Part shown: positions 1-62,977 of the stretch, one piece after another | Layout of the letters: each line of letters begins with the position of its first letter | Position numbering within the stretch: the stretch's first letter is position 1 | Notes under the pieces: model-generated | Databases searched by the model: none | Told to the model about the DNA's origin: nothing | What the model saw: only the letters and a program-made list of their open reading frames with translations | Assembly: GCF_041248615.1 (NCBI RefSeq) | Contig: NZ_CP158426.1 | From: Escherichia coli | GTDB taxonomy: Bacteria > Pseudomonadota > Gammaproteobacteria > Enterobacterales > Enterobacteriaceae | Direction: 5' to 3' (one strand) | Length of the DNA: 64,000 bases | Program-made: the position numbers and the translations under genes

Positions 1-780
1 ACCAGCACCTACATCCCGCACCCGCTGCTCAGCCAGCAGGCTTTTTCACGTTTTGTGCAGGACTATCTGGTATTTGGTAACGCCTACCTGGAGAAACGCA
101 CGAACCGCTTCGGTGAAATTATCGCCCTTGAACCGGCCCTGGCAAAATACACCCGACGCGGGTTAGACCTGGATAACTACTGGTTTGTGCAATACGGCAT
201 GACCACGCAGCCGTATCAGTTCACGAAAGGCAGTATCTTTCATCTGATGGAACCGGACATCAACCAGGAGATCTACGGCCTGCCCGGTTATCTTTCTGCC
301 ATTCCATCCGCCCTGCTCAACGAGTCCGCCACGCTGTTCCGTCGAAAGTATTACATTAACGGCAGTCATGCAGGCTTCATCATGTACATGACCGATGCCG
401 CGCAGAACCAGGAGGATGTGAACAACCTCCGCAATGCGATGAAAAGCGCCAAAGGCCCTGGCAACTTCCGCAACCTGTTTATGTACTCGCCTAACGGCAA
501 AAAGGACGGGCTTCAGATCATCCCGTTGTCAGAAGTCGCGGCGAAGGATGAGTTTCTGAATATCAAGAACGTGAGCCGGGATGACATGATGGCTGCGCAT
601 CGTGTGCCGCCACAAATGATGGGGATAATGCCAAATAATGTCGGGGGATTTGGGGATGTGGAGAAGGCTGCTAATGTGTTTGTTCGAAACGAGTTGCTAC
701 CTTTACAAAAAAGGATAGAGGAGGTCAATGATTGGCTAGGTGAAGATTTAATTACATTCAATTCATATTGCTTTGATTAA
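1..780 (+). CDS. Phage portal protein (P2 Q / 186 W-like), C-terminal part; 5' end lies left of the window
   Basis: Frame 1 is open from base 1 to the stop at 778-780 (track ORF 55-780 starts at an internal GTG). Gene points toward the cos-like sequence at 2045-2063, as the portal gene does in P2-family genomes. Product call is from position and recalled family resemblance. Confidence 0.5.
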   Translation, partial: TSTYIPHPLLSQQAFSRFVQDYLVFGNAYLEKRTNRFGEIIALEPALAKYTRRGLDLDNYWFVQYGMTTQPYQFTKGSIFHLMEPDINQEIYGLPGYLSAIPSALLNESATLFRRKYYINGSHAGFIMYMTDAAQNQEDVNNLRNAMKSAKGPGNFRNLFMYSPNGKKDGLQIIPLSEVAAKDEFLNIKNVSRDDMMAAHRVPPQMMGIMPNNVGGFGDVEKAANVFVRNELLPLQKRIEEVNDWLGEDLITFNSYCFD

Positions 781-832: not shown

Positions 833-1984
833 TTATTCAACTTCATCGTAATAAATCTCCCATTGATCATTCATACCAACAACCTGCTTTTCCTCGTAAA
901 TATACTGAACCTTGTCAATTTCTATTACTTTTGATGAACCATCTATAAATTCCATACATGAAGGATTAAAAACAACCAAGTTCTTACCTTTACCAACTGT
1001 ACTTGAAAATTGTATACCATCATACCCCTCTTTCCTTATACAATCAGATATTAGTTGGGACACACTATATCTTCCTTCTAAGGAAGGTGGAGTTGCAGTA
1101 TTAAAAATACCTGCCATCTTTGCATATGGTATCATGGATAATAAACTTTCATCACTCTCAATAAACTCTAAAAAATTAGGATAAGAAAAATCGAATACCT
1201 TTAATGCTTTTGCAACTCTAAATTTACCAATTGAAACAACATCTGTTGGATGAGGTCGAACTTCCGCAATTGCAGTATAACTATCTGTAGCACAATAAAG
1301 GTAAGAAACGCCTGCTCTATTAGCCCTGCCAGCAGTAGCCTTTAGTGGTGGCACGGCTCCTATTTCCTTATCTTTAAATGGAACAAATATTTTCTTTCCT
1401 TCACGGCTAAATCCCCTAAGTGCTGTTTTATAGCCAGCAGTCCCAACTCTGGCTCTATATACCACAGAACTTCCTTCTATTATCTTCGAAAAAATATCAC
1501 CATAACCTTTTATAATACTTCTTAGCTCACCTTCAAAATCATGGTAATTCTTTTCTGAAAGCTGTTTTGACAAAGAATCTAAAAATGGCTGATGTGCATT
1601 TCTGATAGACATATATGGCGTATTATATAGACCATCAGATCCATAGCCTGCATAAATATTTATTCCCTCACTATCAAATGCCATATCCCACAATTCGCTA
1701 TCGAGTTCCCCAAAAGATTCATCATGCTCCTGTATATCCTTGGTGAAAATAAAATCATCTTCCAATAGAAAACTCGGGTAATACTCCCCTCCAAAATGAG
1801 TATTGTAATCGACTTCATCATAATGATATCTCAGAATAGCTTTCAACAAATTACGTACTTCTGAAGAATCAGTATCTAAACAAACAGTATCTGCACAACA
1901 AAAAGCACAAATACCTCGTATATTTTGCGAAAAAATTAGTTTTTTTATATTTGATTCAACAATGTGACTTTCGCAGATATACAT
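833..1984 (-). CDS. RES-domain protein with Cys/His-rich N-terminal domain (putative NAD+-targeting toxin / abortive-infection effector); AT-rich cargo gene
   Basis: C-terminal half carries the RES signature: VYRAR, AGRANRAGVSYLYCATDSYTAIAEVRPH (R..N..G...LY.A.......E) and DGIQFSSTVGKGKNLVVFNP (conserved Ser, N.vvF). N-terminus has C-x20-C-x2-CC-x4-C. AGGAG sits 6 nt upstream of the second ATG (1984). Markedly AT-rich versus flanking phage genes. Confidence 0.6.
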   Translation of the reverse strand: MYICESHIVESNIKKLIFSQNIRGICAFCCADTVCLDTDSSEVRNLLKAILRYHYDEVDYNTHFGGEYYPSFLLEDDFIFTKDIQEHDESFGELDSELWDMAFDSEGINIYAGYGSDGLYNTPYMSIRNAHQPFLDSLSKQLSEKNYHDFEGELRSIIKGYGDIFSKIIEGSSVVYRARVGTAGYKTALRGFSREGKKIFVPFKDKEIGAVPPLKATAGRANRAGVSYLYCATDSYTAIAEVRPHPTDVVSIGKFRVAKALKVFDFSYPNFLEFIESDESLLSMIPYAKMAGIFNTATPPSLEGRYSVSQLISDCIRKEGYDGIQFSSTVGKGKNLVVFNPSCMEFIDGSSKVIEIDKVQYIYEEKQVVGMNDQWEIYYDEVE

Positions 1985-2044
1985 CATAATCTCCTTGAAT
2001 TTTACCTTACATGCTCATTATTGCCACTTTAGCTTGCGCGCGCA

Positions 2045-2063
2045 ATCGTATCCCCGCCACGCC
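2045..2063 (-). other. cos-like cohesive-end sequence of P2/186 type (bottom strand GGCGTGGCGGGGATACGAT)
   Basis: Bottom strand matches the recalled 19-nt 186 cohesive end GGCGTGGCGGGGAAAGCAT at 15/19 positions (first 13 contiguous). Lies in a GC-rich non-coding block with a perfect 12-bp palindrome TTGCGCGCGCAA at 2034-2045. Located between the early-region end and the portal gene, where cos is expected. Confidence 0.5.
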
Positions 2064-2349: not shown

Positions 2350-4242
2350 TTAATTTGTCCCATCACTAAAGAATTTGATTGCGTCAGTTAGTACATAGTC
2401 AATGAAAAATTTTACGTGAAAGACCTGAAAAACGCTATTTTCTGAGTTTTTAATGAAATCTACAGCTATATCTTTTAGGTTGATCAACCAGTTATATTCT
2501 TCAATCAGTCTAGTTCTGGCATCCGCATCAGAATAACGACTCCGTAAGCTAAATGCCAGTTTCCTCATGATAACTGGATCAAGTTTCCTATAGCTTTCAA
2601 TGAAAACATCAGCAGGAACTAAGTGTAAAAAAGGTACATCATGAAGATTTAACTGTCTATTATTAGAATGACTCAATTCAGATAACAACGATAATTTTCC
2701 CCTTTGTAACTCATCTCTGAACTGCAATGCAAATTCCGAAATTGAATCATCAAACCGTTTCTTCCTTTCTATTTTAATATGTTCAATAATGAGCTTAAAG
2801 TCATCACTATCCCTGTCAAGAAAACCTAAACCACGCCATGCCCTTAATTCGTTATAATGTGTTTGCGCATATTCCTTATGTACATCTTCAGCTCTAAGTC
2901 TATTATAATAATTATTTATATTCTGTTTTGTCTCATTTATGAGATCATGAACATCATCTGTTGTTAGACCTTCTTTCGCCATTTCCAGCAAAATACTCGC
3001 TGTCATCAGAAGTTCACCTAAGGAAGTGATCTTACCTGAAAACAGGTTATCCTTAGCAATAGCGTACTGCTCATAAAGCATAGTTTCATTTAGTTCTCTA
3101 TAGTTCCACAAATACTCCCATGCTTGGGAATCGCTGCTTCTAAAAAATCGCGTAATATCCAACTGAGCAAGAAGATCACCCGTTACCTTTCCATCACAGA
3201 TTAGTTCTCTCCAAGACGCACCATCCAGTAACTTCTCGGTTAATACAGGAGACGAATATTTCTCGACAATCATGTCATACTTACTTTTGACACGTTCTTT
3301 ACCCAAAAACATACCATAATTAACATTGCCGATTGAATTGAAATCCTCGTAACTAAGATTCCCTCCCCGGTACTCCATCGAAAAAATTAACAATTGATGA
3401 AAAAACACCCTTATAAATTCATCGTTACTTACATATTTATCTCCCAAAAGGGAAATAATTCGTTGTACATCGAGAAAGAACTGCCTCAAGTGTCTTAGAT
3501 TATTATAATTCGCTGACACATAGAGGTCCTCTATTGTCTGCATATCTTCTTTAAATATATTAGCAACATGCAAACTACTAATTACGTTCAAAAAAATCTT
3601 ACAAGCACTATGTAAATCTGACGTTACTTCAAATGTTTTACCTACTAGCTTTTCTTTTGTTCTCATGTATTCATTGCGAGATTTCTCATCATCATTATTT
3701 ATTCGCTTTTCTCTATTGATTATTTCATCTTCATTGGCAACCAAGATCGCTTTGTATCCGTTTACCTCTACAAAGTGATTTATATATCCAAATAAGATTG
3801 GTAAATCTACACCAGCTCTCTCGACATCATCAAAGACCAGCACAAAACCATCTGGTTTTCTAGTAAAGTCGCTAAGATTAATGGTGGGAACATTGCTATT
3901 GACATCTACGTCAGATTTATTATCGCCATTAAGATCGATCTTGAAAGTAGCCTTAAGCGTATTTTTTAGTACATTTGCACCAAAGATAAGGGCTTTGTTT
4001 GATAGGACAGGATGCAGTTGACGATAGAACTCATCTTCAATCTGCTCAATAGAGTTGACGCCATACAAGCTCACTTTTAGAAATTTGAACTCTGAATGTT
4101 TCTGCCTATATTCTTCAAGAACTCGTTCAATGAACCAAGTTTTACCTGATCCCCAAGCACCTTTAAGCATAATGGCGTATTGAGGTTCAGTTTTAAGGCT
4201 AAGGTAATATTCTAGATAGTCTTTGATGTACGTATTGTGCAT
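2350..4242 (-). CDS. KAP-family P-loop NTPase (candidate anti-phage defence cargo in the tin/old-equivalent hotspot)
   Basis: Walker A GAWGSGKT in the KAP-type GxWGxGK[ST] context and Walker B-like hhhhDDVER (VLVFDDVER); about 630 aa. AT-rich. Start taken at the MHNTY Met (4242); the track ORF extends to 4293 with no RBS. Confidence 0.65.
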   Translation of the reverse strand: MHNTYIKDYLEYYLSLKTEPQYAIMLKGAWGSGKTWFIERVLEEYRQKHSEFKFLKVSLYGVNSIEQIEDEFYRQLHPVLSNKALIFGANVLKNTLKATFKIDLNGDNKSDVDVNSNVPTINLSDFTRKPDGFVLVFDDVERAGVDLPILFGYINHFVEVNGYKAILVANEDEIINREKRINNDDEKSRNEYMRTKEKLVGKTFEVTSDLHSACKIFLNVISSLHVANIFKEDMQTIEDLYVSANYNNLRHLRQFFLDVQRIISLLGDKYVSNDEFIRVFFHQLLIFSMEYRGGNLSYEDFNSIGNVNYGMFLGKERVKSKYDMIVEKYSSPVLTEKLLDGASWRELICDGKVTGDLLAQLDITRFFRSSDSQAWEYLWNYRELNETMLYEQYAIAKDNLFSGKITSLGELLMTASILLEMAKEGLTTDDVHDLINETKQNINNYYNRLRAEDVHKEYAQTHYNELRAWRGLGFLDRDSDDFKLIIEHIKIERKKRFDDSISEFALQFRDELQRGKLSLLSELSHSNNRQLNLHDVPFLHLVPADVFIESYRKLDPVIMRKLAFSLRSRYSDADARTRLIEEYNWLINLKDIAVDFIKNSENSVFQVFHVKFFIDYVLTDAIKFFSDGTN

Positions 4243-4563
4243 TTTTAGTCCATTTTGATAAAATACATAAACATAGATGGTAAGTAGAGCCAAAGGCCAA
4301 CTATGGAAAACTCAATCGGTAGTGTACATTGTAAGGTTATTATTGGTAAATATTATAGGAATACCCATAATCTAACAAAATTCAGATTATCCGTTGCAAA
4401 TTAGTCTGCCATTCGCTAATTGACGAAAGATAGCACAAGAAACGTTCGCTTCTGGCACAAAGCGGACGATCACTTATAAAAATGACCGCCCACCTTACGC
4501 CTTATTTCACTCGTTGCCCAAACTAGCCCCCATTAGAATGAATCCTCCTAGGGGCAACGTTTC

Positions 4564-4797
4564 TTAATGCAGCCAGCTGTCATCTTCCCACACTTTCTGC
4601 ATAATTTTCATTACTTGTTTTCTTTCTTCGTCCAGTTGCAGTCCGGTTAGTTCCACACCGTTAGAGCTACCTTTGCGGATACGAATTACCGTTTTGGAAT
4701 ACAGGGGGCGCAGATTGCGGTAAAGCTCGGATTCAAGGGCGTCCAGGGTAGACTGGCTAATCTTCTGCTCTTTATCGATCATTATTTCAATGCGCAT
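4564..4797 (-). CDS. DinI-family protein (resembles E. coli DinI and the DinI-like domain of phage 186 Tum)
   Basis: MRIEIMIDKEQ...LDALESEL...IRIRKG...LTGLQLDEERKQVMKIMQKVWEDDSW aligns by eye with DinI (MRIEV.IAK...IDAL..EL......V.VR...LSV.G...E...I.EILQETWE.ADDW). GAGGTG RBS 7 nt upstream of ATG at 4797; track ORF 4564-4869 is an upstream extension. Confidence 0.6.
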   Translation of the reverse strand: MRIEIMIDKEQKISQSTLDALESELYRNLRPLYSKTVIRIRKGSSNGVELTGLQLDEERKQVMKIMQKVWEDDSWLH

Positions 4798-4807
4798 AAA
4801 AGTCACC

Positions 4808-4996
4808 TCAGCTGATGACATCCATTGAGCGGTTGTATTCGTGGCTTCTGATTTTTGCCATGAGTTCATCAGTCAATTCAGAAACCCACTGCAGAGCCAG
4901 CCCCTTCTCTTCATCACTACACTCACTAGCCGCTACAAGCTTAAGAAAAAAATCAATGCGCTGGAGCTTCAAAGACTCCAAAAAATAGTCCTGCAT
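4808..4996 (-). CDS. Small phage protein of unknown function, first gene of a two-gene unit with the DinI-like gene
   Basis: 62-codon ORF with AGGAGG RBS 5 nt upstream of ATG; its stop lies 10 nt before the DinI-like start. Confidence 0.45.
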   Translation of the reverse strand: MQDYFLESLKLQRIDFFLKLVAASECSDEEKGLALQWVSELTDELMAKIRSHEYNRSMDVIS

Positions 4997-5039
4997 CTTT
5001 CCTCCTATGACACCACACGCAATTCTGTATGTATAACCA

Positions 5040-5055
5040 CTGTTTATATTTACAG
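5040..5055 (-). promoter_or_regulatory. LexA-box-like motif (bottom strand CTGT-N8-ACAA) upstream of the small-protein/DinI-like pair
   Basis: Top strand TTGTTTATATTTACAG; on the coding strand this is CTGTAAATATAAACAA, one mismatch from the CTGT-N8-ACAG SOS box, about 45 bp upstream of the start codon. Confidence 0.3.
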
Positions 5056-5149
5056 TATATAATAATCCTACTGATGTAAAACGTTTTTTTACGCTTATCA
5101 GCCTGATATGCCTGGTATTATTAAGAGCACGAATTGTTAACCCGCGTAA

Positions 5150-7564
5150 TTAATACAGGTTCCGCCACTGATCATCTTCCTGCAAACGTTGGTTCCGATA
5201 GAAGATACGCAGGCCTGCTCCTGACGGAATACTGCCGCCACGAAGGAGTAAATAGACCTCTTTCTCGCTGCCATCAAATCCTCTGGACTTCAGTTCATAG
5301 ACAAGCTGCTGTCGCTGATGGTCTGTAATTCGCTGTTTGTAGTCTTTACGCCGTTTCGGTTTCACCAGGCGTAACCTTGCAGCCAGTTCCCGGCGCTCTT
5401 TTTTGCTCATACTGTGCAGGTATTCGTGCAACTCCTTGTCATCCATGCGGGTGATATCCGTTCTGGTATCTCCATCAGCTGATTTGTCTTTCCCTTGTTG
5501 GTACAAATTTTCAGCAAGGGGACAGTTATTGCCACGAGTCCAAGGGGCGCAAGCGCCCTGGTCGGCTGCCGCCTCCTGAACGTCAACGGCCTTACGAACC
5601 ATTTTCCACTTCACTGCATGAGTGCAGATCTTGCCCTCTGCAATGGGTGACCAGATGCCATAAATACGAATGCCGTGATCGCCATAGGCGGTCGGCTCTT
5701 CGTTAATTTCATAAGCAGTTCTGATGAGGTGATATTTGCGGGGAACCAGTACGCCGCCCTGCTTCATGATGTAAGTGGCAAAACAACCAGCATCAGCAGC
5801 AGCCAGGATTGCATCAAGGCGCGGGTTATCCAGTACCGGCGCACCTGCTTTTTTGTCCCCCTGTTGCCTTGCCGCCTGACCAGCCAGCAATCGCAGTTCA
5901 CGGTAAGCCTGACGCCCCGGAATGCCAAAGAAGCGGAATTGCTGAACACGATGCAGAGACGCCCAGGCATTAACGTATTCAGCGTTATCACGCAGGGATT
6001 TACCCGTTTCCTTGCTGATCTCGCCAGCCAGACCACGCCCGTCAATGTTCTTACTGATGTATTTCGCGATGTAGCTTGTTGGCGTACCTTTGCGCGGGTT
6101 TATCAGCTCAGACTTAAAGCGTGGTCCCGTGTTATTCCCCAGCTCCTCGCGGTCTTCACGAATGGCAAACTTACGCAATAAAGCAGTAATGGCGCGGCGA
6201 TCTTTTTTGCGCATAAAACACAACAGGTGCCAGTGAACTGTACCGTCATGATGCGGCTCAGCCACCCGCACGCCATACCACCGCAATCCGGCTTTGTGCA
6301 TCGCCTTACGAAATGCAGCAAACATGCCGACCAGATAATCACTGCTTTGTTTTACCGTCGCATTTGTCCAGGTTGGGTTGGGCCTGCCGTTATTTAGCGT
6401 GGAATGGAAACGTGACGGACAGGTGATGGTGTAGAAAACGGCGCAGTCACCGCGCATTTCCGCGATAAGCTCCAGACCTTTAACACAGGCCATCATCTCA
6501 TTGCGGCGATGCGCAGGGTTGCTGCTGCTGGCGTTTACCACATCCTCCATGTCCAGCGTGTCGCCGTCTTCGTTCACCAGTTCATGAGAACGGAAAAACT
6601 CCAGCGACTTACGGCGCTGCTCACGTTTATGCATCACGGCTTCATAGCTGACATAGGGGGATGCTTTTTTGCTAACCAGGCAGACAGCGCGCAACTGCTC
6701 TTCCCGCCATTCGCAACGCATCTTCCATAATTTCCGATACCACCAGTCGGCGCACAACATACGCGCCAGCGAACCCGGAATGAGTTCATAGGGCACGGGT
6801 TTACGGCGGTTTCTTTTCCGGCGGAGTTGCTCAAACGCAGGTGGGATGACATCCAGACGCAGGGTTTCCGCCGCCACCCTTTCCCATGTCTTGCGGATTT
6901 CTTCTGGCTTAACGTCATCGGTGGCATACAAATCGCCACAAGCTGCATCAAGGCACATGCTCATATGCGCAGCAACAAGGGTGGACAGGCGTTTCACCTG
7001 ATCCTGACTCATTTCAGGCAGAATCAGCAGGCCGTCCAGCCCTTCATGGCTTGCCATAAAGCGAAAAGAAGTGGATAGCTGACTGTCGCGTACATGCTCC
7101 AGCCGTTCCAGACATGGCTTAATCGTCTCACGCAAATAGCGGGAATAAGCCTTTGGCCTGCCAAGGCTACTGAAGTATTCAATACGTTGCATCAGCGGCT
7201 TGCTGATATGGGAGGGCTGGGCGCTGACGTCTGCCAGAATGACCATGTCCGGGTTAAAACGCTGCTGCTCATGCGCCAACTTTGCCCGGCTAATGAGCTT
7301 ATCCTGCTCCATTTCGCGCTGGACAGGATCACGGGATTCATTAAAGAAATAACGCTCCCAGACCTGATCACTCAGTGCCTCGCGGCGCAGTTGTTCCTGC
7401 TCGTTATCGGCAGCGTACAGAGTGATCAGGTTTGAAAGCGCAGAAACCGGCGCAACTTCCGCCGGGTCCAGATAAGGGTTAATAGCCTTTTTCGGGCTGT
7501 TCCATGAGAATGCTGCGGCGGCCTCGTTAAAGCCGCTGCAGTTGTTCATATCAGCATGGCTCAT
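5150..7564 (-). CDS. Phage replication initiation endonuclease (P2 gpA / 186 A family, rolling-circle)
   Basis: 804-aa ORF; size, early-operon position and C-terminal region resemble P2-family A proteins. Start overlaps the Dam stop by 4 nt. Confidence 0.8.
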
Positions 7565-9455: not shown

Positions 9456-9965
9456 TCACAGCAAACCGAATGAAGCACCGAGGCCAGTCACGGTATCAAC
9501 TGCACTCGCCATCGCAGGGTTAGCCTGTAAACGGGCCTGCAATGAAACAGCAGCCAGCGCCATCAGTCGTGTTACAGAGTTAATGCTGCTGATAGCATCA
9601 CGACGACCTGCACTGGTTTTTACATCGCCAGATACCGCACCTGCAGCAACACGCCCGATCTCTGCGGTTGCACTCATGACGTAATGCGGCAGTTTCTCTT
9701 TTGCTACCTCATTAATCGGAACACATGGCAGGCAGTGAATCTGTGCCAGAAAACCATCTACCAGCGTTGAATCTTCAGTCAGATCGGTAAGCAACCAAAT
9801 TTCTGGTGCGGTTAATAAATGAGGTTGAGCTGGGTTCAGTTTGTTCCGCAGAATCTGCACATTCATACCTGCACGTTCTGCCAGTTGCACCAGATTGTGG
9901 CGCAGTGCGAATGCACGACAGGCTTCATCAAAATGTGGATGTTTGGAAACTTGGTAATCAAACAT
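9456..9965 (-). CDS. CII-like lysogeny-establishment transcriptional activator (phage 186 CII family)
   Basis: N-terminus [24 protein letters not shown]...[25 protein letters not shown] closely matches the recalled 186 CII sequence; first gene-pair position of the lytic operon. Confidence 0.8.
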
Positions 9966-9997
9966 GGTCAATGCCTCTGATGTATTTCAGAATCGAA

Positions 9998-10219: not shown

Positions 10220-10344
10220 GATGCAACATTCCTCGTTTAATGATGATTAATCAGGACGAATACGGATCGTTTGTATTTTGTGAACACCATAAACATACGA
10301 TCGCACAATGAAATCGTCAAGACAAAAGTTCACTTGGAGTGACC
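10220..10344. promoter_or_regulatory. Immunity switch region between apl and cI (expected pR/pL promoters and CI operators)
   Basis: 125-bp divergent intergenic region containing repeated ACGATCG-type elements; assignment by analogy to 186. Confidence 0.45.
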
Positions 10345-10914
10345 ATGAATTTGGAGAAAGGCGGACGAGGCGCTATAGAGCGCATGGTAGAAGCTTATGG
10401 ATTCAAGACTCGACAGGCGTTGTGCGATCATTTAGGAATCTCTAAAAGTACACTCGCCACACGCTACATGCGTGACTCATTCCCCGCAGAATGGGTAATC
10501 CAGTGCGCCCTTGAAACGGGCACCTCGCTTAATTGGCTCACAACCGGGCATGGTTCAAAGCAAACTTCAGGTAATACAAATACTATGGAAGTTGCTAAAT
10601 ATGTATTATCTGATGGGGCCTTGTGTGAAGACGGTTTTTATATTTTCGATAGGGGATTTCTACCGTCGGCATTCAAGAGTCTTTTTGTAATCACAGATAA
10701 TAATTCTGAATGTATTTGTGATAAGGAATTTGATGATATACGTGATGGTAAATGGGTAATAAGTATTGATGGTGAAATAACGATCCGTGACATTACTCGT
10801 TTACCCGGCGGAAGAATCTTCGTCGAGGGTGGAAACAGAGCGTTCGAATGCAAGATAGAAGACATTGAAATAATTGGTAAAATTATAAGTTTAACAGTCA
10901 AGTATGTTAAATAG
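10345..10914 (+). CDS. CI immunity repressor (phage 186 CI family)
   Basis: ERMVEAYGF...CALETGTSLNWLTTGHG...GKWVISIDGEITIRDITRLPGGRIFVEGGNRAFECKIEDIEIIGKII parallels the recalled 186 CI sequence; GGAG RBS before ATG at 10345 (track ORF starts at GTG 10339). Confidence 0.85.
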   Translation: MNLEKGGRGAIERMVEAYGFKTRQALCDHLGISKSTLATRYMRDSFPAEWVIQCALETGTSLNWLTTGHGSKQTSGNTNTMEVAKYVLSDGALCEDGFYIFDRGFLPSAFKSLFVITDNNSECICDKEFDDIRDGKWVISIDGEITIRDITRLPGGRIFVEGGNRAFECKIEDIEIIGKIISLTVKYVK

Positions 10915-11121: not shown

Positions 11122-11309
11122 CTTTTGCTTTTATATCTGCGCCTAAAATAAAAATGAGCCGCAGGTTAACCGCAAAAGTTACATGCTCACATAGCAAAAA
11201 GAATAGCCAACTTAATTATGGCTTCAGTGAGATGTATGGTCGTAGGATTTCATACATTGACACTGGTTATACATACAGTGAAAATGCTCTCTACTGGAGG
11301 GCATTTTTT

Positions 11310-28578: not shown

Positions 28579-29490
28579 CTATCCTTTAATTTTCGGATCC
28601 AGCGCATCGCGTAAACCATCACCCAACAAATTGAACGCCAGTACAGTCAGAAAAATAGCCAGGGCCGGAAAAATAGCGACATGCGGCGCGATAACCATAT
28701 CCGCTCGTGCCTCATTGAGCATTGCTCCCCACTCTGGTGTCGGCGGCTGCGCACCGAGGCCGAGAAATGACAGGCTGGCGGCAGAGATAATCGAGGTACC
28801 GATGCGCATGGTGAAAAACACCACGATAGACGAGACGGTCCCAGGCAAGATATGACGCAATAAAATGGTCATATCGCTGGCACCAATACTGCGTGCTGAC
28901 TCAATAAAGGTTTGCTGTTTCAACACCAGCGTGTTGCCGCGCACCAGTCGGGCAAACGCGGGGATGGAAAAAATGGCGACTGCAATAATCACGTTAGCAA
29001 TGCCGCTTCCCAACACCGCAACAACAGCGATCGCCAGTAAAATACCCGGGAAGGCAAACAGCACATCGCAAATGCGCATGATCAGCCGATCCCACCAGCC
29101 TTCATAATATCCAGCCAACAAGCCCAGCAACGTCCCGATCGCCGCACCGATAAACACGGCAAACACGCCCGCCGCCAGCGAGATTTGTGCACCAACCAGG
29201 ACACGGCTGAAAATGTCACGCCCCAGTGAATCAACGCCAAACCAGTGCTGCAAAGAAGGTCCGTTATTCAGATTGTCATAATCGAAATAATTTTCGGCGT
29301 CATAGGGAGCGATCCAGCGTGCAAAAATGGCCACTACAATCAATAAAATAACGAATAATGCGGCGGTCATCGCCATATGCTGACGGCGAAATCGTCGCCA
29401 GAATTCATGCCACGGTGTACGTACCTGGTCAGGTTTGACCAGTGGCATGGCGTTTAACGCCGCCTGACGTCGCCAGTTAAATAGTCGCAT
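28579..29490 (-). CDS. gsiD: Glutathione ABC transporter permease GsiD
   Basis: 303 aa permease; synteny. Confidence 0.9.
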
Positions 29491-60751: not shown

Positions 60752-62977
60752 ATGCGGTGGATCCTGTTCATCCTCTTCTGCCTGCTGGGCGCACCTGCCC
60801 ACGCGGTATCCATACCCGGCGTTACAACCACAACGACAACGGACTCAACGACTGAACCGGCCCCGGAACCGGATATCGAACAAAAAAAAGCGGCCTATGG
60901 CGCACTGGCGGATGTGCTGGATAATGACACCTCGCGTAAAGAGTTGATCGACCAGTTGCGCACCGTCGCCGCGACGCCCCCTGCGGAACCCGTACCGAAG
61001 ATCGTGCCGCCGACGCTGGTTGAAGAGCAAACCGTGCTGCAAAAAGTCACCGAAGTCAGCCGCCATTATGGTGAAGCCCTTTCCGCCCGCTTCGGACAAC
61101 TTTATCGCAATATCACCGGCTCCCCGCATAAGCCGTTTAATCCACAAACCTTCAGCAATGCGTTGACCCATTTTTCAATGTTAGCGGTATTAGTGTTTGG
61201 TTTTTACTGGCTGATTCGCCTGTGCGCACTTCCGCTGTATCGCAAAATGGGTCAGTGGGCGCGGCAAAAAAATCGTGAGCGCAGTAACTGGTTGCAGCTT
61301 CCGGCGATGATTATCGGGGCGTTTATTATCGACCTGCTGTTACTGGCGCTGACATTGTTTGTCGGCCAGGTATTAAGCGACAACCTGAATGCGGGCAGTC
61401 GCACCATCGCTTTCCAACAAAGTTTGTTTCTCAACGCCTTTGCCCTGATTGAATTTTTCAAAGCTGTACTACGCCTGATTTTTTGCCCAAACGTGGCGGA
61501 ACTGCGCCCGTTCACGATTCATGACGAGACCGCCCGTTACTGGAGCCGTCGCCTGAGCTGGTTAAGCAGCCTGATTGGCTATGGCCTGATTGTGGCCGTG
61601 CCGATTATCTCTAATCAGGTGAATGTACAGATAGGTGCGCTGGCGAACGTCATCATTATGCTGTGCATGACGGTCTGGGCGTTGTACCTGATCTTTCGCA
61701 ATAAAAAAGAGATTACCCAGCATTTGCTCAACTTCGCGGAGCATTCGCTGGCCTTTTTCAGCCTGTTTATCCGCGCCTTTGCGCTGGTGTGGCACTGGCT
61801 GGCAAGCGCCTATTTTATCGTGCTGTTTTTCTTTTCGTTGTTCGATCCGGGCAACAGCCTGAAATTTATGATGGGTGCAACGGTGCGCAGCCTGGCGATT
61901 ATTGGTATCGCAGCATTTGTTTCCGGTATGTTTTCCCGCTGGCTGGCGAAAACCATCACCCTCTCGCCACATACTCAGCGTAACTATCCCGAGCTGCAAA
62001 AACGGCTGAATGGATGGCTTTCGGCGGCACTGAAAACGGCGCGTATTCTGACCGTCTGCGTGGCGGTAATGTTGCTGTTGAGCGCATGGGGATTGTTCGA
62101 TTTCTGGAACTGGCTGCAAAACGGTGCGGGGCAGAAAACCGTAGATATCCTGATCCGTATCGCACTCATTCTTTTCTTCTCGGCGGTTGGCTGGACGGTG
62201 CTCGCCAGTTTGATCGAAAACAGGCTGGCTTCGGATATTCATGGCCGCCCACTACCCAGCGCCCGTACGCGTACCCTGCTGACGCTGTTCCGTAACGCGC
62301 TGGCGGTGATTATCAGTACCATCACCATCATGATTGTGTTGTCGGAAATCGGCGTTAATATCGCGCCATTGCTGGCAGGTGCCGGTGCATTGGGGCTGGC
62401 TATCTCTTTTGGTTCGCAAACGCTGGTGAAAGATATTATCACCGGGGTATTTATTCAGTTTGAAAACGGCATGAACACTGGAGATTTGGTGACTATCGGG
62501 CCGTTGACCGGCACTGTGGAACGGATGTCGATTCGCTCCGTGGGCGTGCGTCAGGATACCGGGGCGTATCACATCATTCCGTGGTCTTCGATAACTACCT
62601 TTGCTAACTTCGTCCGCGGCATTGGTTCGGTGGTGGCAAATTACGATGTTGATCGCCATGAAGATGCTGATAAAGCCAATCAGGCACTGAAAGATGCGGT
62701 AGCTGAATTGATGGAAAACGAAGAAATTCGCGGGTTGATTATCGGTGAACCGAACTTTGCCGGGATTGTCGGCTTAAGCAATACCGCATTTACACTGCGT
62801 GTTTCGTTCACCACGCTGCCACTCAAACAGTGGACGGTCCGCTTTGCCCTCGACAGCCAGGTGAAAAAACATTTCGACCTGGCGGGTGTTCGCGCGCCGG
62901 TACAGACTTATCAGGTGCTGCCTGCTCCGGGCGCGGCCCCGGCTGAACCGCTGCCGCCGGGGGAGCCAACGCTTTAA
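60752..62977 (+). CDS. ybiO: Mechanosensitive channel YbiO (MscS family)
   Basis: 741 aa from MRWILFILF with GGAGG RBS; signal peptide, multiple TM helices, MscS-like C-terminal domain. Confidence 0.9.

Follow-up and report, generated by a model that had tools for sequence, protein, structure and literature searches.

The two small genes that lie between the replication gene A and the cos site of a prophage in a 64-kb window of Escherichia coli DNA (the window being the whole stretch analysed, 64,000 nucleotides) very probably make up a split SOS-induction operon (tumA plus tumB) of the 186/Fels-2 prophage type. A split Tum switch has already been described for 186/Fels-2-type prophages and is a common and ordinary arrangement, and about a quarter of complete E. 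coli genomes (1283 of 5426) carry the module beside a replication endonuclease gene. Of the two products, the upstream one, a 62-aa protein, is probably the Tum-like trigger; it is followed by a free-standing DinI-like protein of 77 aa.

Genomic context of the module

The window is 100% identical to E. coli NRZ14408 (NZ_LT599825) and holds a 186/Fels-2-like prophage (family Peduoviridae). Over the initial 12.4 kb of the window one reads, in reversed orientation, the right arm of a P2/186-like prophage, with the following genes and sites:

55-780, plus strand: portal gene Q, end part
833-1987, minus strand: RES-domain gene
2045-2063, minus strand: cos
2350-4242, minus strand: KAP-family P-loop NTPase cargo gene, a neighbour outside the module
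4564-4797, minus strand: 77-aa DinI-like gene (tumB)
4808-4996, minus strand: 62-aa tumA-like gene, putative antirepressor
5150-7564, minus strand: P2-type replication gene A (gpA), upstream of the 62-aa gene
between gene A and CII in window order: dam, then a DksA-like gene
9456-9971, minus strand: CII, matching PF06892
9998-10219, minus strand: Apl-like gene
10339-10914, plus strand: 186-type CI immunity repressor
following CI: a small YdcA-family gene, then int (start 11310, plus strand)

The cos site was spotted by eye and then confirmed through alignment with the annotated 186 cohesive end, to which it is identical at 16 of 19 positions; a search with the P2 cos pattern, allowing up to three mismatches, gave no match. 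The module is thus placed between replication gene A and cos, at the right end of a P2/186-like genome.

The two-gene unit after the replication gene, which had been read from the letters in a first-pass annotation of this DNA, is found where that annotation put it, and RefSeq calls both genes identically. The strong ribosome-binding site (RBS) that it gave to each gene is likewise present, AGGAGG (5001-5006) for the 62-aa gene and GAGGTGA (4803-4809) for the 77-aa gene. As the latter overlaps the TGA stop of the 62-aa gene, the two are probably translationally coupled.

The 62-aa protein resembles the N-terminal part of Tum

The unit had been introduced as a pair of DinI-like genes, a description that does not hold for its first member: the 62-aa protein has no Pfam or NCBIfam match, and the 77-aa protein alone is DinI-like. 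Among phage protein families, the 62-aa protein matches the PHROG profiles phrog_698 (E 5.9e-38), phrog_8554 (1.1e-8) and phrog_1993 (0.002). 186 Tum hits these three PHROGs as well with its N-terminus, residues 7-44 of Tum aligning to positions 7-44 of phrog_698, and PSP3 TumA matches phrog_1993. In a direct profile comparison, an alignment of 28 diverse members of the 62-aa family was matched by hhalign to 186 Tum with a probability of 94.9% (E 4.5e-8) over residues 3-44 of both. These reciprocal PHROG matches and the hhalign result indicate homology to the N-terminal part of Tum. Compared by BLASTP, the 62-aa protein shows no similarity to either 186 Tum or PSP3 TumA, and the homology to the Tum N-terminus is therefore a remote one. 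The profile match of the family to PSP3 TumA alone is weak (8.6% probability).

No relative of the 62-aa family was found in the PDB, and some databases label the protein ‘levan regulatory protein’. A literature search on TumA/TumB returned nothing relevant, and we found no direct demonstration in the literature of antirepressor activity for a Fels-2-type (phrog_698) protein.

The 77-aa protein belongs to the DinI family

Concerning the second gene, its earlier assignment to the DinI family is borne out by an HMM search in which the protein matches the full Pfam DinI domain PF06183 (profile positions 1-63 of 63, E 5.8e-22, 78.2 bits against a cut-off of 24.2). It also aligns over its full length with the solved E. 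coli DinI (PDB 1GHH, E 2.4e-5) and is 40% identical to residues 71-145 of 186 Tum. However, it reaches just 39 bits against the cut-off of 111 for NF007893, the NCBIfam equivalog of chromosomal DinI, and by these scores the protein is DinI-like and distinct from the host DinI orthologue.

Since the 62-aa family matches Tum residues 3-44 and the 77-aa protein residues 71-145, the two genes represent the two halves of Tum, with the DinI-like half carried here by a separate downstream gene.

Predicted LexA boxes and promoter

Upstream of the 62-aa gene we recognised the following elements, all read on the minus strand:

5075-5080, minus strand: -35 hexamer TTTACA of the tumA promoter (equivalent of 186 p95), five of six bases matching TTGACA
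5052-5057, minus strand: -10 hexamer TACTGT, by analogy with 186 p95; these are the opening six bases of the LexA 20-mer
5038-5057, minus strand: LexA box 1, 20-mer TACTGTAAATATAAACAGTG, with its 16-mer core at 5040-5055; top site of the LexA matrix in the window
5023-5042, minus strand: candidate LexA box 2, CAGTGGTTATACATACAGAA, directly downstream of box 1

A near-consensus SOS box had been reported upstream of the operon, and it is indeed there. Its final base had been wrongly given as ...ACAA: the core on the coding strand (5055 down to 5040) reads CTGTAAATATAAACAG, a perfect CTGT-N8-ACAG, and the true site is better than was stated. By chance, 64 kb should hold 0.64 copies of the bare pattern CTGT-N8-ACAG, which is not significant alone, and all positions were therefore scored with a 20-position matrix. 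The 26 E. coli LexA sites from which this matrix was built give a consensus that is the accepted TACTGTATATATATACAGTA. The scoring with a LexA matrix that the annotation had called for puts box 1 at the top of all positions in the window, both strands included; its heterology index is 3.95 on the matrix’s own scale, which departs from published indices by up to about four units. Simulating the window 200 times with a first-order Markov model produced no site with an index of 6 or less, and box 1 is retained in 79 of 80 close relatives.

TTTACA and TACTGT are separated by 17 nt; a stricter consensus scan favours an alternative in which TTTACA is followed after 15 nt by TATACT, and LexA would cover the -10 hexamer with either choice. 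The annotated p95 promoter of 186 is very similar: TTCACA, 18 nt, then TACTGT, with the -10 at 29044-29049 and the LexA site at 29044-29063, so that TACTGT opens the LexA site there too. At the sequence level, a LexA operator thus overlaps the promoter of the operon.

Box 2 probably binds LexA as well. Its 16-mer core is offset by 15 nt from that of box 1 and shares one base with it, as in colicin operators (e.g. ColE1 cea), where two 16-mer cores likewise overlap by one base and the second box, as here, begins with GTG in place of CTG. Its index is 10.1; the simulations give 0.36 sites of 10.2 or less per 64 kb, and the occurrence of such a site at the exact colicin-type offset is therefore unlikely to be due to chance. 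Box 2 shares 17 of 20 bases with the proximal SOS box of ColE1, and its Fels-2 counterpart shares 20 of 20; scored on one scale, the ColE1 proximal box has an index of 11.6 and box 2 of 10.1. (The ColE1 sequence used was confirmed to be present in plasmid ColE1, where it lies 46 nt upstream of the colicin E1 start codon.) On the published scale, box 1 would by inference be stronger than the ColE1 distal box. Among the 80 close relatives the ACAG half of box 2 is kept in 79, while its centre varies more than any other part of the upstream region, a pattern that fits a candidate LexA site without proving one. Double SOS boxes have been published as giving tight repression, with expression in few cells. 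In colicin operons they control a toxin, whereas the candidate double box described here would control a prophage antirepressor.

Conservation of the operator and of tumA in diverged prophages

A homologue scan with the 62-aa protein alone gave only relatives that are 98-100% identical, and more diverged representatives were located separately. We inspected family members 37-52% identical to the 62-aa protein from four separate lineages. In all four, the tumA-like gene starts about 100 nt after the Phage_GPA replication gene. These four lineages, as well as 186, PSP3 and Fels-2, all carry a strong LexA box, with an index of 0.8-5.5 and placed 16-61 nt ahead of the start codon, even though the DNA around it cannot be aligned among these phages. 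A DinI gene follows in one of the four diverged lineages; the others continue with cargo or directly with ogr and the portal gene. LexA box and tumA-like gene are therefore always found together after gpA and DinI is often absent, so that the conserved unit excludes DinI, which appears as an accessory.

Immunity repressor and proposed mechanism

The product of the CI gene, the presumed target of the antirepressor, matches PF07022 (E 2.8e-33) and PF16452 (E 1.2e-25), and is 33% identical to 186 CI and 41% to Fels-2 CI. Against the S24 peptidase family it scores 16.4 bits, under the cut-off of 23.3. Judged from its domains, this is then a 186-type CI with no S24 match above cut-off, and for that reason an antirepressor would be needed for SOS induction. 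In phages whose tumA/tumB are at least 95% identical to those described here, CI is just 41-56% identical to the one in this prophage, the conservation being mostly in the N-terminal DNA-binding domain. With TumA so similar and CI so divergent, a tight one-to-one fit between TumA and CI is not evident.

From these elements the following sequence of events can be proposed. In the lysogen, host LexA would sit on the near-consensus box that covers the -10 hexamer, just downstream of gene A, and probably also on the weaker box 2 that abuts it, both holding the operon off. Upon DNA damage, activated RecA would promote self-cleavage of LexA and the operon would be transcribed. The 62-aa TumA-like product would then bind the 186-type CI stoichiometrically and prevent its binding to the operators, allowing the early lytic promoter to fire and the prophage to be induced. 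The free-standing DinI-like product would act as an accessory on RecA filaments, tuning the strength or duration of the SOS response, and would not itself be the trigger. The genes, their domain homologies, the layout of operator and promoter, the synteny and the conservation are observed in the sequences; LexA binding, the interaction of TumA with CI and the role of the DinI-like protein we infer from the near-identity to Fels-2, from the distant relationship to 186 Tum and from what has been published on 186 and PSP3.

Comparison with known systems

Compared with prophage Fels-2 of Salmonella LT2, the DNA of the module is 95.7% identical over the promoter, the operator and the two genes. There, the pair STM2728/STM2726.1 has the same order, the same sizes (62 and 77 aa) and the same position after gpA, and the annotation of its DinI gene notes a similarity to TumB of PSP3. 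Fels-2 has the same candidate double LexA-box layout, although its box 2 differs at three of 20 positions and has an index of 7.9, the site described here being the weaker one. The cargo downstream is also different, being STM2726 in Fels-2 and the KAP NTPase in this prophage. PSP3 carries genes annotated as tumA (‘UV induction of prophage’) and tumB in the same order and position after gpA, with sizes of 60 and 77 aa. However, its TumA belongs to phrog_1993 and the 62-aa protein to phrog_698, it has one LexA box, and its repressor gene, annotated cI, is larger (861 nt).

Phage 186 shares the LexA box over a TACTGT -10, the site after gene A near cos, and the switch made of a 186-type CI and CII. 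In 186, however, Tum (146 aa) holds both parts in one polypeptide with internal starts, whereas here they are encoded by two genes in different frames, and the likeness of its N-terminal part to the 62-aa protein is visible only with profiles. Only one LexA box is present in 186, where the canonical terminator t95a follows tum and orf97 lies downstream. The p95 promoter of 186 is repressed by LexA and drives the anti-CI factor Tum, which sequesters CI (PMC7708051). Tum has been described as resembling an antirepressor fused to DinI, and tum as being split in Fels-2 and PSP3 into an upstream antirepressor gene and a downstream DinI homologue, with the antirepressor activity of the upstream PSP3 gene given as a personal communication (Lemire 2011). 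The operons of the Gifsy phages and Fels-1 (dinI-gfoA/gftA-irsA) likewise combine a LexA box, a DinI homologue, a small antirepressor and an uncleaved repressor; however, dinI comes first in them, their antirepressors are unrelated in sequence, and they belong to lambdoid phages with other repressors.

Expression data are available for Salmonella TA100, which carries Fels-2: after treatment with the mutagen MX, STM2727 is up 5.5 to 14.8-fold and is the most significantly induced entry of the LexA-regulon list of that study. From its number, which lies between STM2726 and STM2728, STM2727 would be the Fels-2 DinI-like gene. The grouping of STM2726, STM2727 and STM2728 into an operon in the MX paper is an assumption of its method rather than evidence of co-induction, and was left out of the discussion of the cargo gene below.

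These comparisons bear on two proposals of the first-pass annotation. That the locus is a LexA-controlled module in the style of 186 Tum is supported by the 186-type CI and CII, the p95-like layout and the identity to Fels-2; what has to be revised is the protein on which the Tum-likeness was pinned, as the homologue of the Tum N-terminal part is the 62-aa protein and not the DinI-like one. That the prophage is SOS-inducible, unlike P2, agrees with its 186-type immunity, the p95-like layout, the near-identity to Fels-2 and the induction of STM2727 by MX. For annotators, this means that the prophage should be inducible by DNA damage, in contrast to P2, and that an unnamed 62-aa ‘hypothetical protein’ is the likely trigger.

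Alternative explanations

The operon might be SOS-regulated and yet not be an induction trigger, its DinI-like protein modulating host RecA for the lysogen, the 62-aa protein having an unrelated role or none, and induction, if any, following another route. The strong DinI-family match would suit such a role, as would the lack of a curated family and the ‘levan regulatory protein’ label of the 62-aa protein. Non-polar deletions of dinI homologues in Gifsy prophages are without effect on induction (Lemire 2011), from which it follows that prophage DinI genes are not themselves triggers. Yet the 62-aa family has its homologue in the N-terminal region of Tum, and it is this gene, not DinI, that invariably accompanies the LexA box after gpA. 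Moreover, a CI with no peptidase match above cut-off requires an antirepressor, which the published PSP3/Fels-2 data put in the upstream gene, and we regard an operon devoid of trigger function as quite improbable. Still less credible is that the LexA-like sequence is a chance palindrome or the site of another protein, and the genes the tail of an early lytic transcript reading through from A. We detected no consensus terminator between A and the 62-aa gene, where folding shows just weak AT-rich hairpins, and the expected frequency of the bare CTGT-N8-ACAG would allow for a fortuitous match. Against this stand the full 20-position score, which none of the 200 simulations attained, the conserved position of the box relative to the start codon across lineages with unrelated flanks, a layout identical to that of an experimentally characterised LexA-regulated promoter, and the response of the Fels-2 copy to a mutagen.

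A single Tum-like fusion protein could also be imagined, made if ribosomes shifted by +1 out of tumA and into an open frame of 101 aa (4564-4869). The DinI frame is in fact open for 24 codons before its ATG, overlapping the 3’ end of tumA; in PSP3, tumA and tumB lie in one frame with just a stop codon between them, and 186 Tum is a natural fusion. In this prophage, however, the reading frame of tumB is offset by +1 from that of tumA and no slippery site is evident in the sequence. In addition, tumB has its own strong RBS, with an ATG aligned to the start of E. coli DinI, and tumA stands alone in many lineages. Finally, in none of the 67 family representatives does the tumA match form the start of a chain the size of Tum (about 140 aa). 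We therefore consider such a fusion highly unlikely, and retain the split tumA plus tumB operon as the preferred reading.

The spacer and the KAP cargo gene

The region between tumB and cos is a published cos-proximal defence hotspot of P2-like phages, whose systems are active when cloned with their native promoters. Here it is occupied by the KAP protein, which matches Pfam KAP_NTPase (E 5.3e-20) and the PADLOC candidate system PDC-S49 (E 3.7e-156); the exact KAP plus RES region of this prophage is found in two of 5426 E. coli genomes. In 80 relatives with a near-identical tumA, a crude ORF count gives more than 40 size/strand combinations for the first long ORF after DinI, and by the same crude count about 70% of these first ORFs are co-oriented with tum. 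The likely start of KAP is at 4242, 321 nt past the tumB (DinI) stop, and the spacer includes three elements:

4526-4555, minus strand: conserved stem-loop predicted by RNAalifold, 8 nt past the tumB stop
4454-4501, minus strand: 22-bp hairpin in both the minimum-free-energy and the centroid fold, between the ~72-nt element described below and the KAP cassette
4373-4378 and 4352-4357, minus strand: promoter-like TTGTTA, 15 nt, TATAAT before KAP (consensus scan)

For the stem-loop, RNAalifold predicts ten pairs from 18 variants, eight of them with compensatory changes on both sides, and G-U pairs occur on the tum-sense strand only. It belongs to an element of about 72 nt that ends in GAGGCGT(T/A)AG, where the cargo begins, and that about 68 of the 80 relatives share with PSP3; Fels-2 and 186 lack it. 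The 22-bp hairpin is common to a sub-lineage of relatives with other cargo. Rfam returned nothing credible over the region, with sub-threshold miRNA-like matches on the 22-bp hairpin. There is no U tract after the 4526-4555 stem and no clear one at 4454-4501, so that neither hairpin is a textbook terminator.

It had been suggested that the KAP gene might be SOS-coupled, the module lying directly upstream of it. There is a precedent in 186, where the p95 transcript passes a partial terminator into orf97. On the other hand, the 321-nt spacer places two strong hairpins before KAP and contains a promoter-like site of KAP’s own, and the coupling is one that might exist. STM2726 of Fels-2 was considered as a homologue of orf97 and turned out not to be one.

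The spacer also enters a more elaborate SOS circuit than that of 186, which we put forward as a tentative and rather doubtful extension. In such a circuit, a colicin-style double LexA operator would delay and sharpen expression of the antirepressor, a second LexA-gated promoter would serve int (11257-11285), and a near-invariant antirepressor would act on many heteroimmune CIs, cross-inducing co-resident Fels-2-like prophages. Read-through past a structured, non-terminating 3’ element would further couple the cos-proximal hotspot (PDC-S49 KAP NTPase) to DNA damage. The split operon is a finding that opens no new question alone; four side observations, namely the candidate double operator, the int promoter possibly gated by LexA, the covarying hairpin bordering the hotspot and the pairing of a conserved antirepressor with divergent CIs, may bear on when the defence genes in the hotspot of P2-like prophages are expressed.

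A predicted LexA site upstream of int

The second-best LexA site of the window lies at 11261-11280, with an index of 4.7. It takes up the 17 nt that separate the two hexamers of a promoter-like TTGACA ... GAAAAT (11257-11285), 30 nt before the int start codon. The site is found in three phages with differing upstream neighbours, with an invariant CTG-N10-CAG and a variable centre.

LexA boxes upstream of int and at the tumA operator

The LexA-matrix scan placed a strong LexA box, the second-ranking one in the window, upstream of the integrase gene int (start 11310), and a weaker, candidate box lies at the operator of tumA, the gene for the putative antirepressor:

11257-11285, +, LexA box CTGGTTATACATACAG with promoter-like hexamers, upstream of int
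5023-5042, -, weaker LexA-like box 2, overlapping box 1 (the LexA box over the -10 of the tumA promoter) by one base

The int-upstream box exactly occupies the 17 nt that separate the two hexamers of a promoter-like TTGACA ... GAAAAT, and the int start codon follows 30 nt downstream. The box is also present in phages 813R9, 4LV2017 and KP12, where CTG-N10-CAG is unchanged, the centre is variable, and the genes upstream of it differ. Fels-2, unlike the window prophage, has no such box, because its int abuts cI. On its sequence, the site is a candidate SOS-gated integrase promoter.

Concerning the tumA operator, the same one-base overlap of two SOS boxes as that of box 1 and box 2 is known from colicin operators, and the Fels-2 version of box 2 matches the proximal SOS box of ColE1 at 20 of 20 positions. 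The scan also returned a weak LexA-like site outside the prophage, in host DNA of the window: AACTGAATAAATACCCCGGT at 62441-62460 (-), with an index of 9.9 on a scale where lower is better.

The putative antirepressor and its presumed target

Among phages that share the putative antirepressor at 95% identity or more, the immunity repressor CI is only 41-56% identical to that of the window prophage (10339-10914, +), and the likeness between the window and Fels-2 CI proteins lies mostly in the N-terminal HTH domain. These sequence comparisons suggest that the antirepressor acts broadly, or that its target surface is conserved. Some database homologues of this 62-aa protein (4808-4996, -) are named ‘levan regulatory protein’, a name that no family model supports and that looks like a propagated mis-annotation.

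A structured element between tumB and the cargo

Two features lie between tumB, the DinI-like gene, and the KAP cassette:

4490-4563, -, ~72-nt element with a stem-loop at 4526-4555, beginning directly after the DinI stop
4454-4501, -, 22-bp hairpin between the element and the KAP cassette

The element consists, in order, of GAAACGTTGC, the stem-loop, AACGAG and GAGGCGT(T/A)AG. Compensatory changes affect 8 of the 10 stem pairs, G-U pairs occur on the sense strand only, and no U tail follows the stem-loop. PSP3 and about 68 of the 80 relatives carry the element, Fels-2 and 186 lack it, and it corresponds to no Rfam family. Variable cargo starts where it stops. The 22-bp hairpin is common to a sub-lineage of relatives with differing cargo; miRNA-like Rfam matches in the region arise from it and were rejected as spurious.

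Two cargo slots on either side of cos

2350-4242, -, KAP NTPase, matching PDC-S49, a candidate defence family in PADLOC (E 3.7e-156)
2045-2063, -, cos site GGCGTGGCGGGGATACGAT, agreeing with the annotated cohesive end of 186 at 16 of 19 positions
833-1987, -, RES-domain protein of 384 aa, RefSeq name ‘RES family NAD+ phosphorylase’

The seven bases following cos are also identical to 186. The position of cos therefore assigns KAP to the right end of the genome and the RES-domain gene, which lies between cos and Q, to the left end; the two occupy separate cargo slots. PADLOC gave no match for the RES-domain protein. Exactly this combination of KAP and RES is present in just 2 of 5426 complete E. 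coli genomes.
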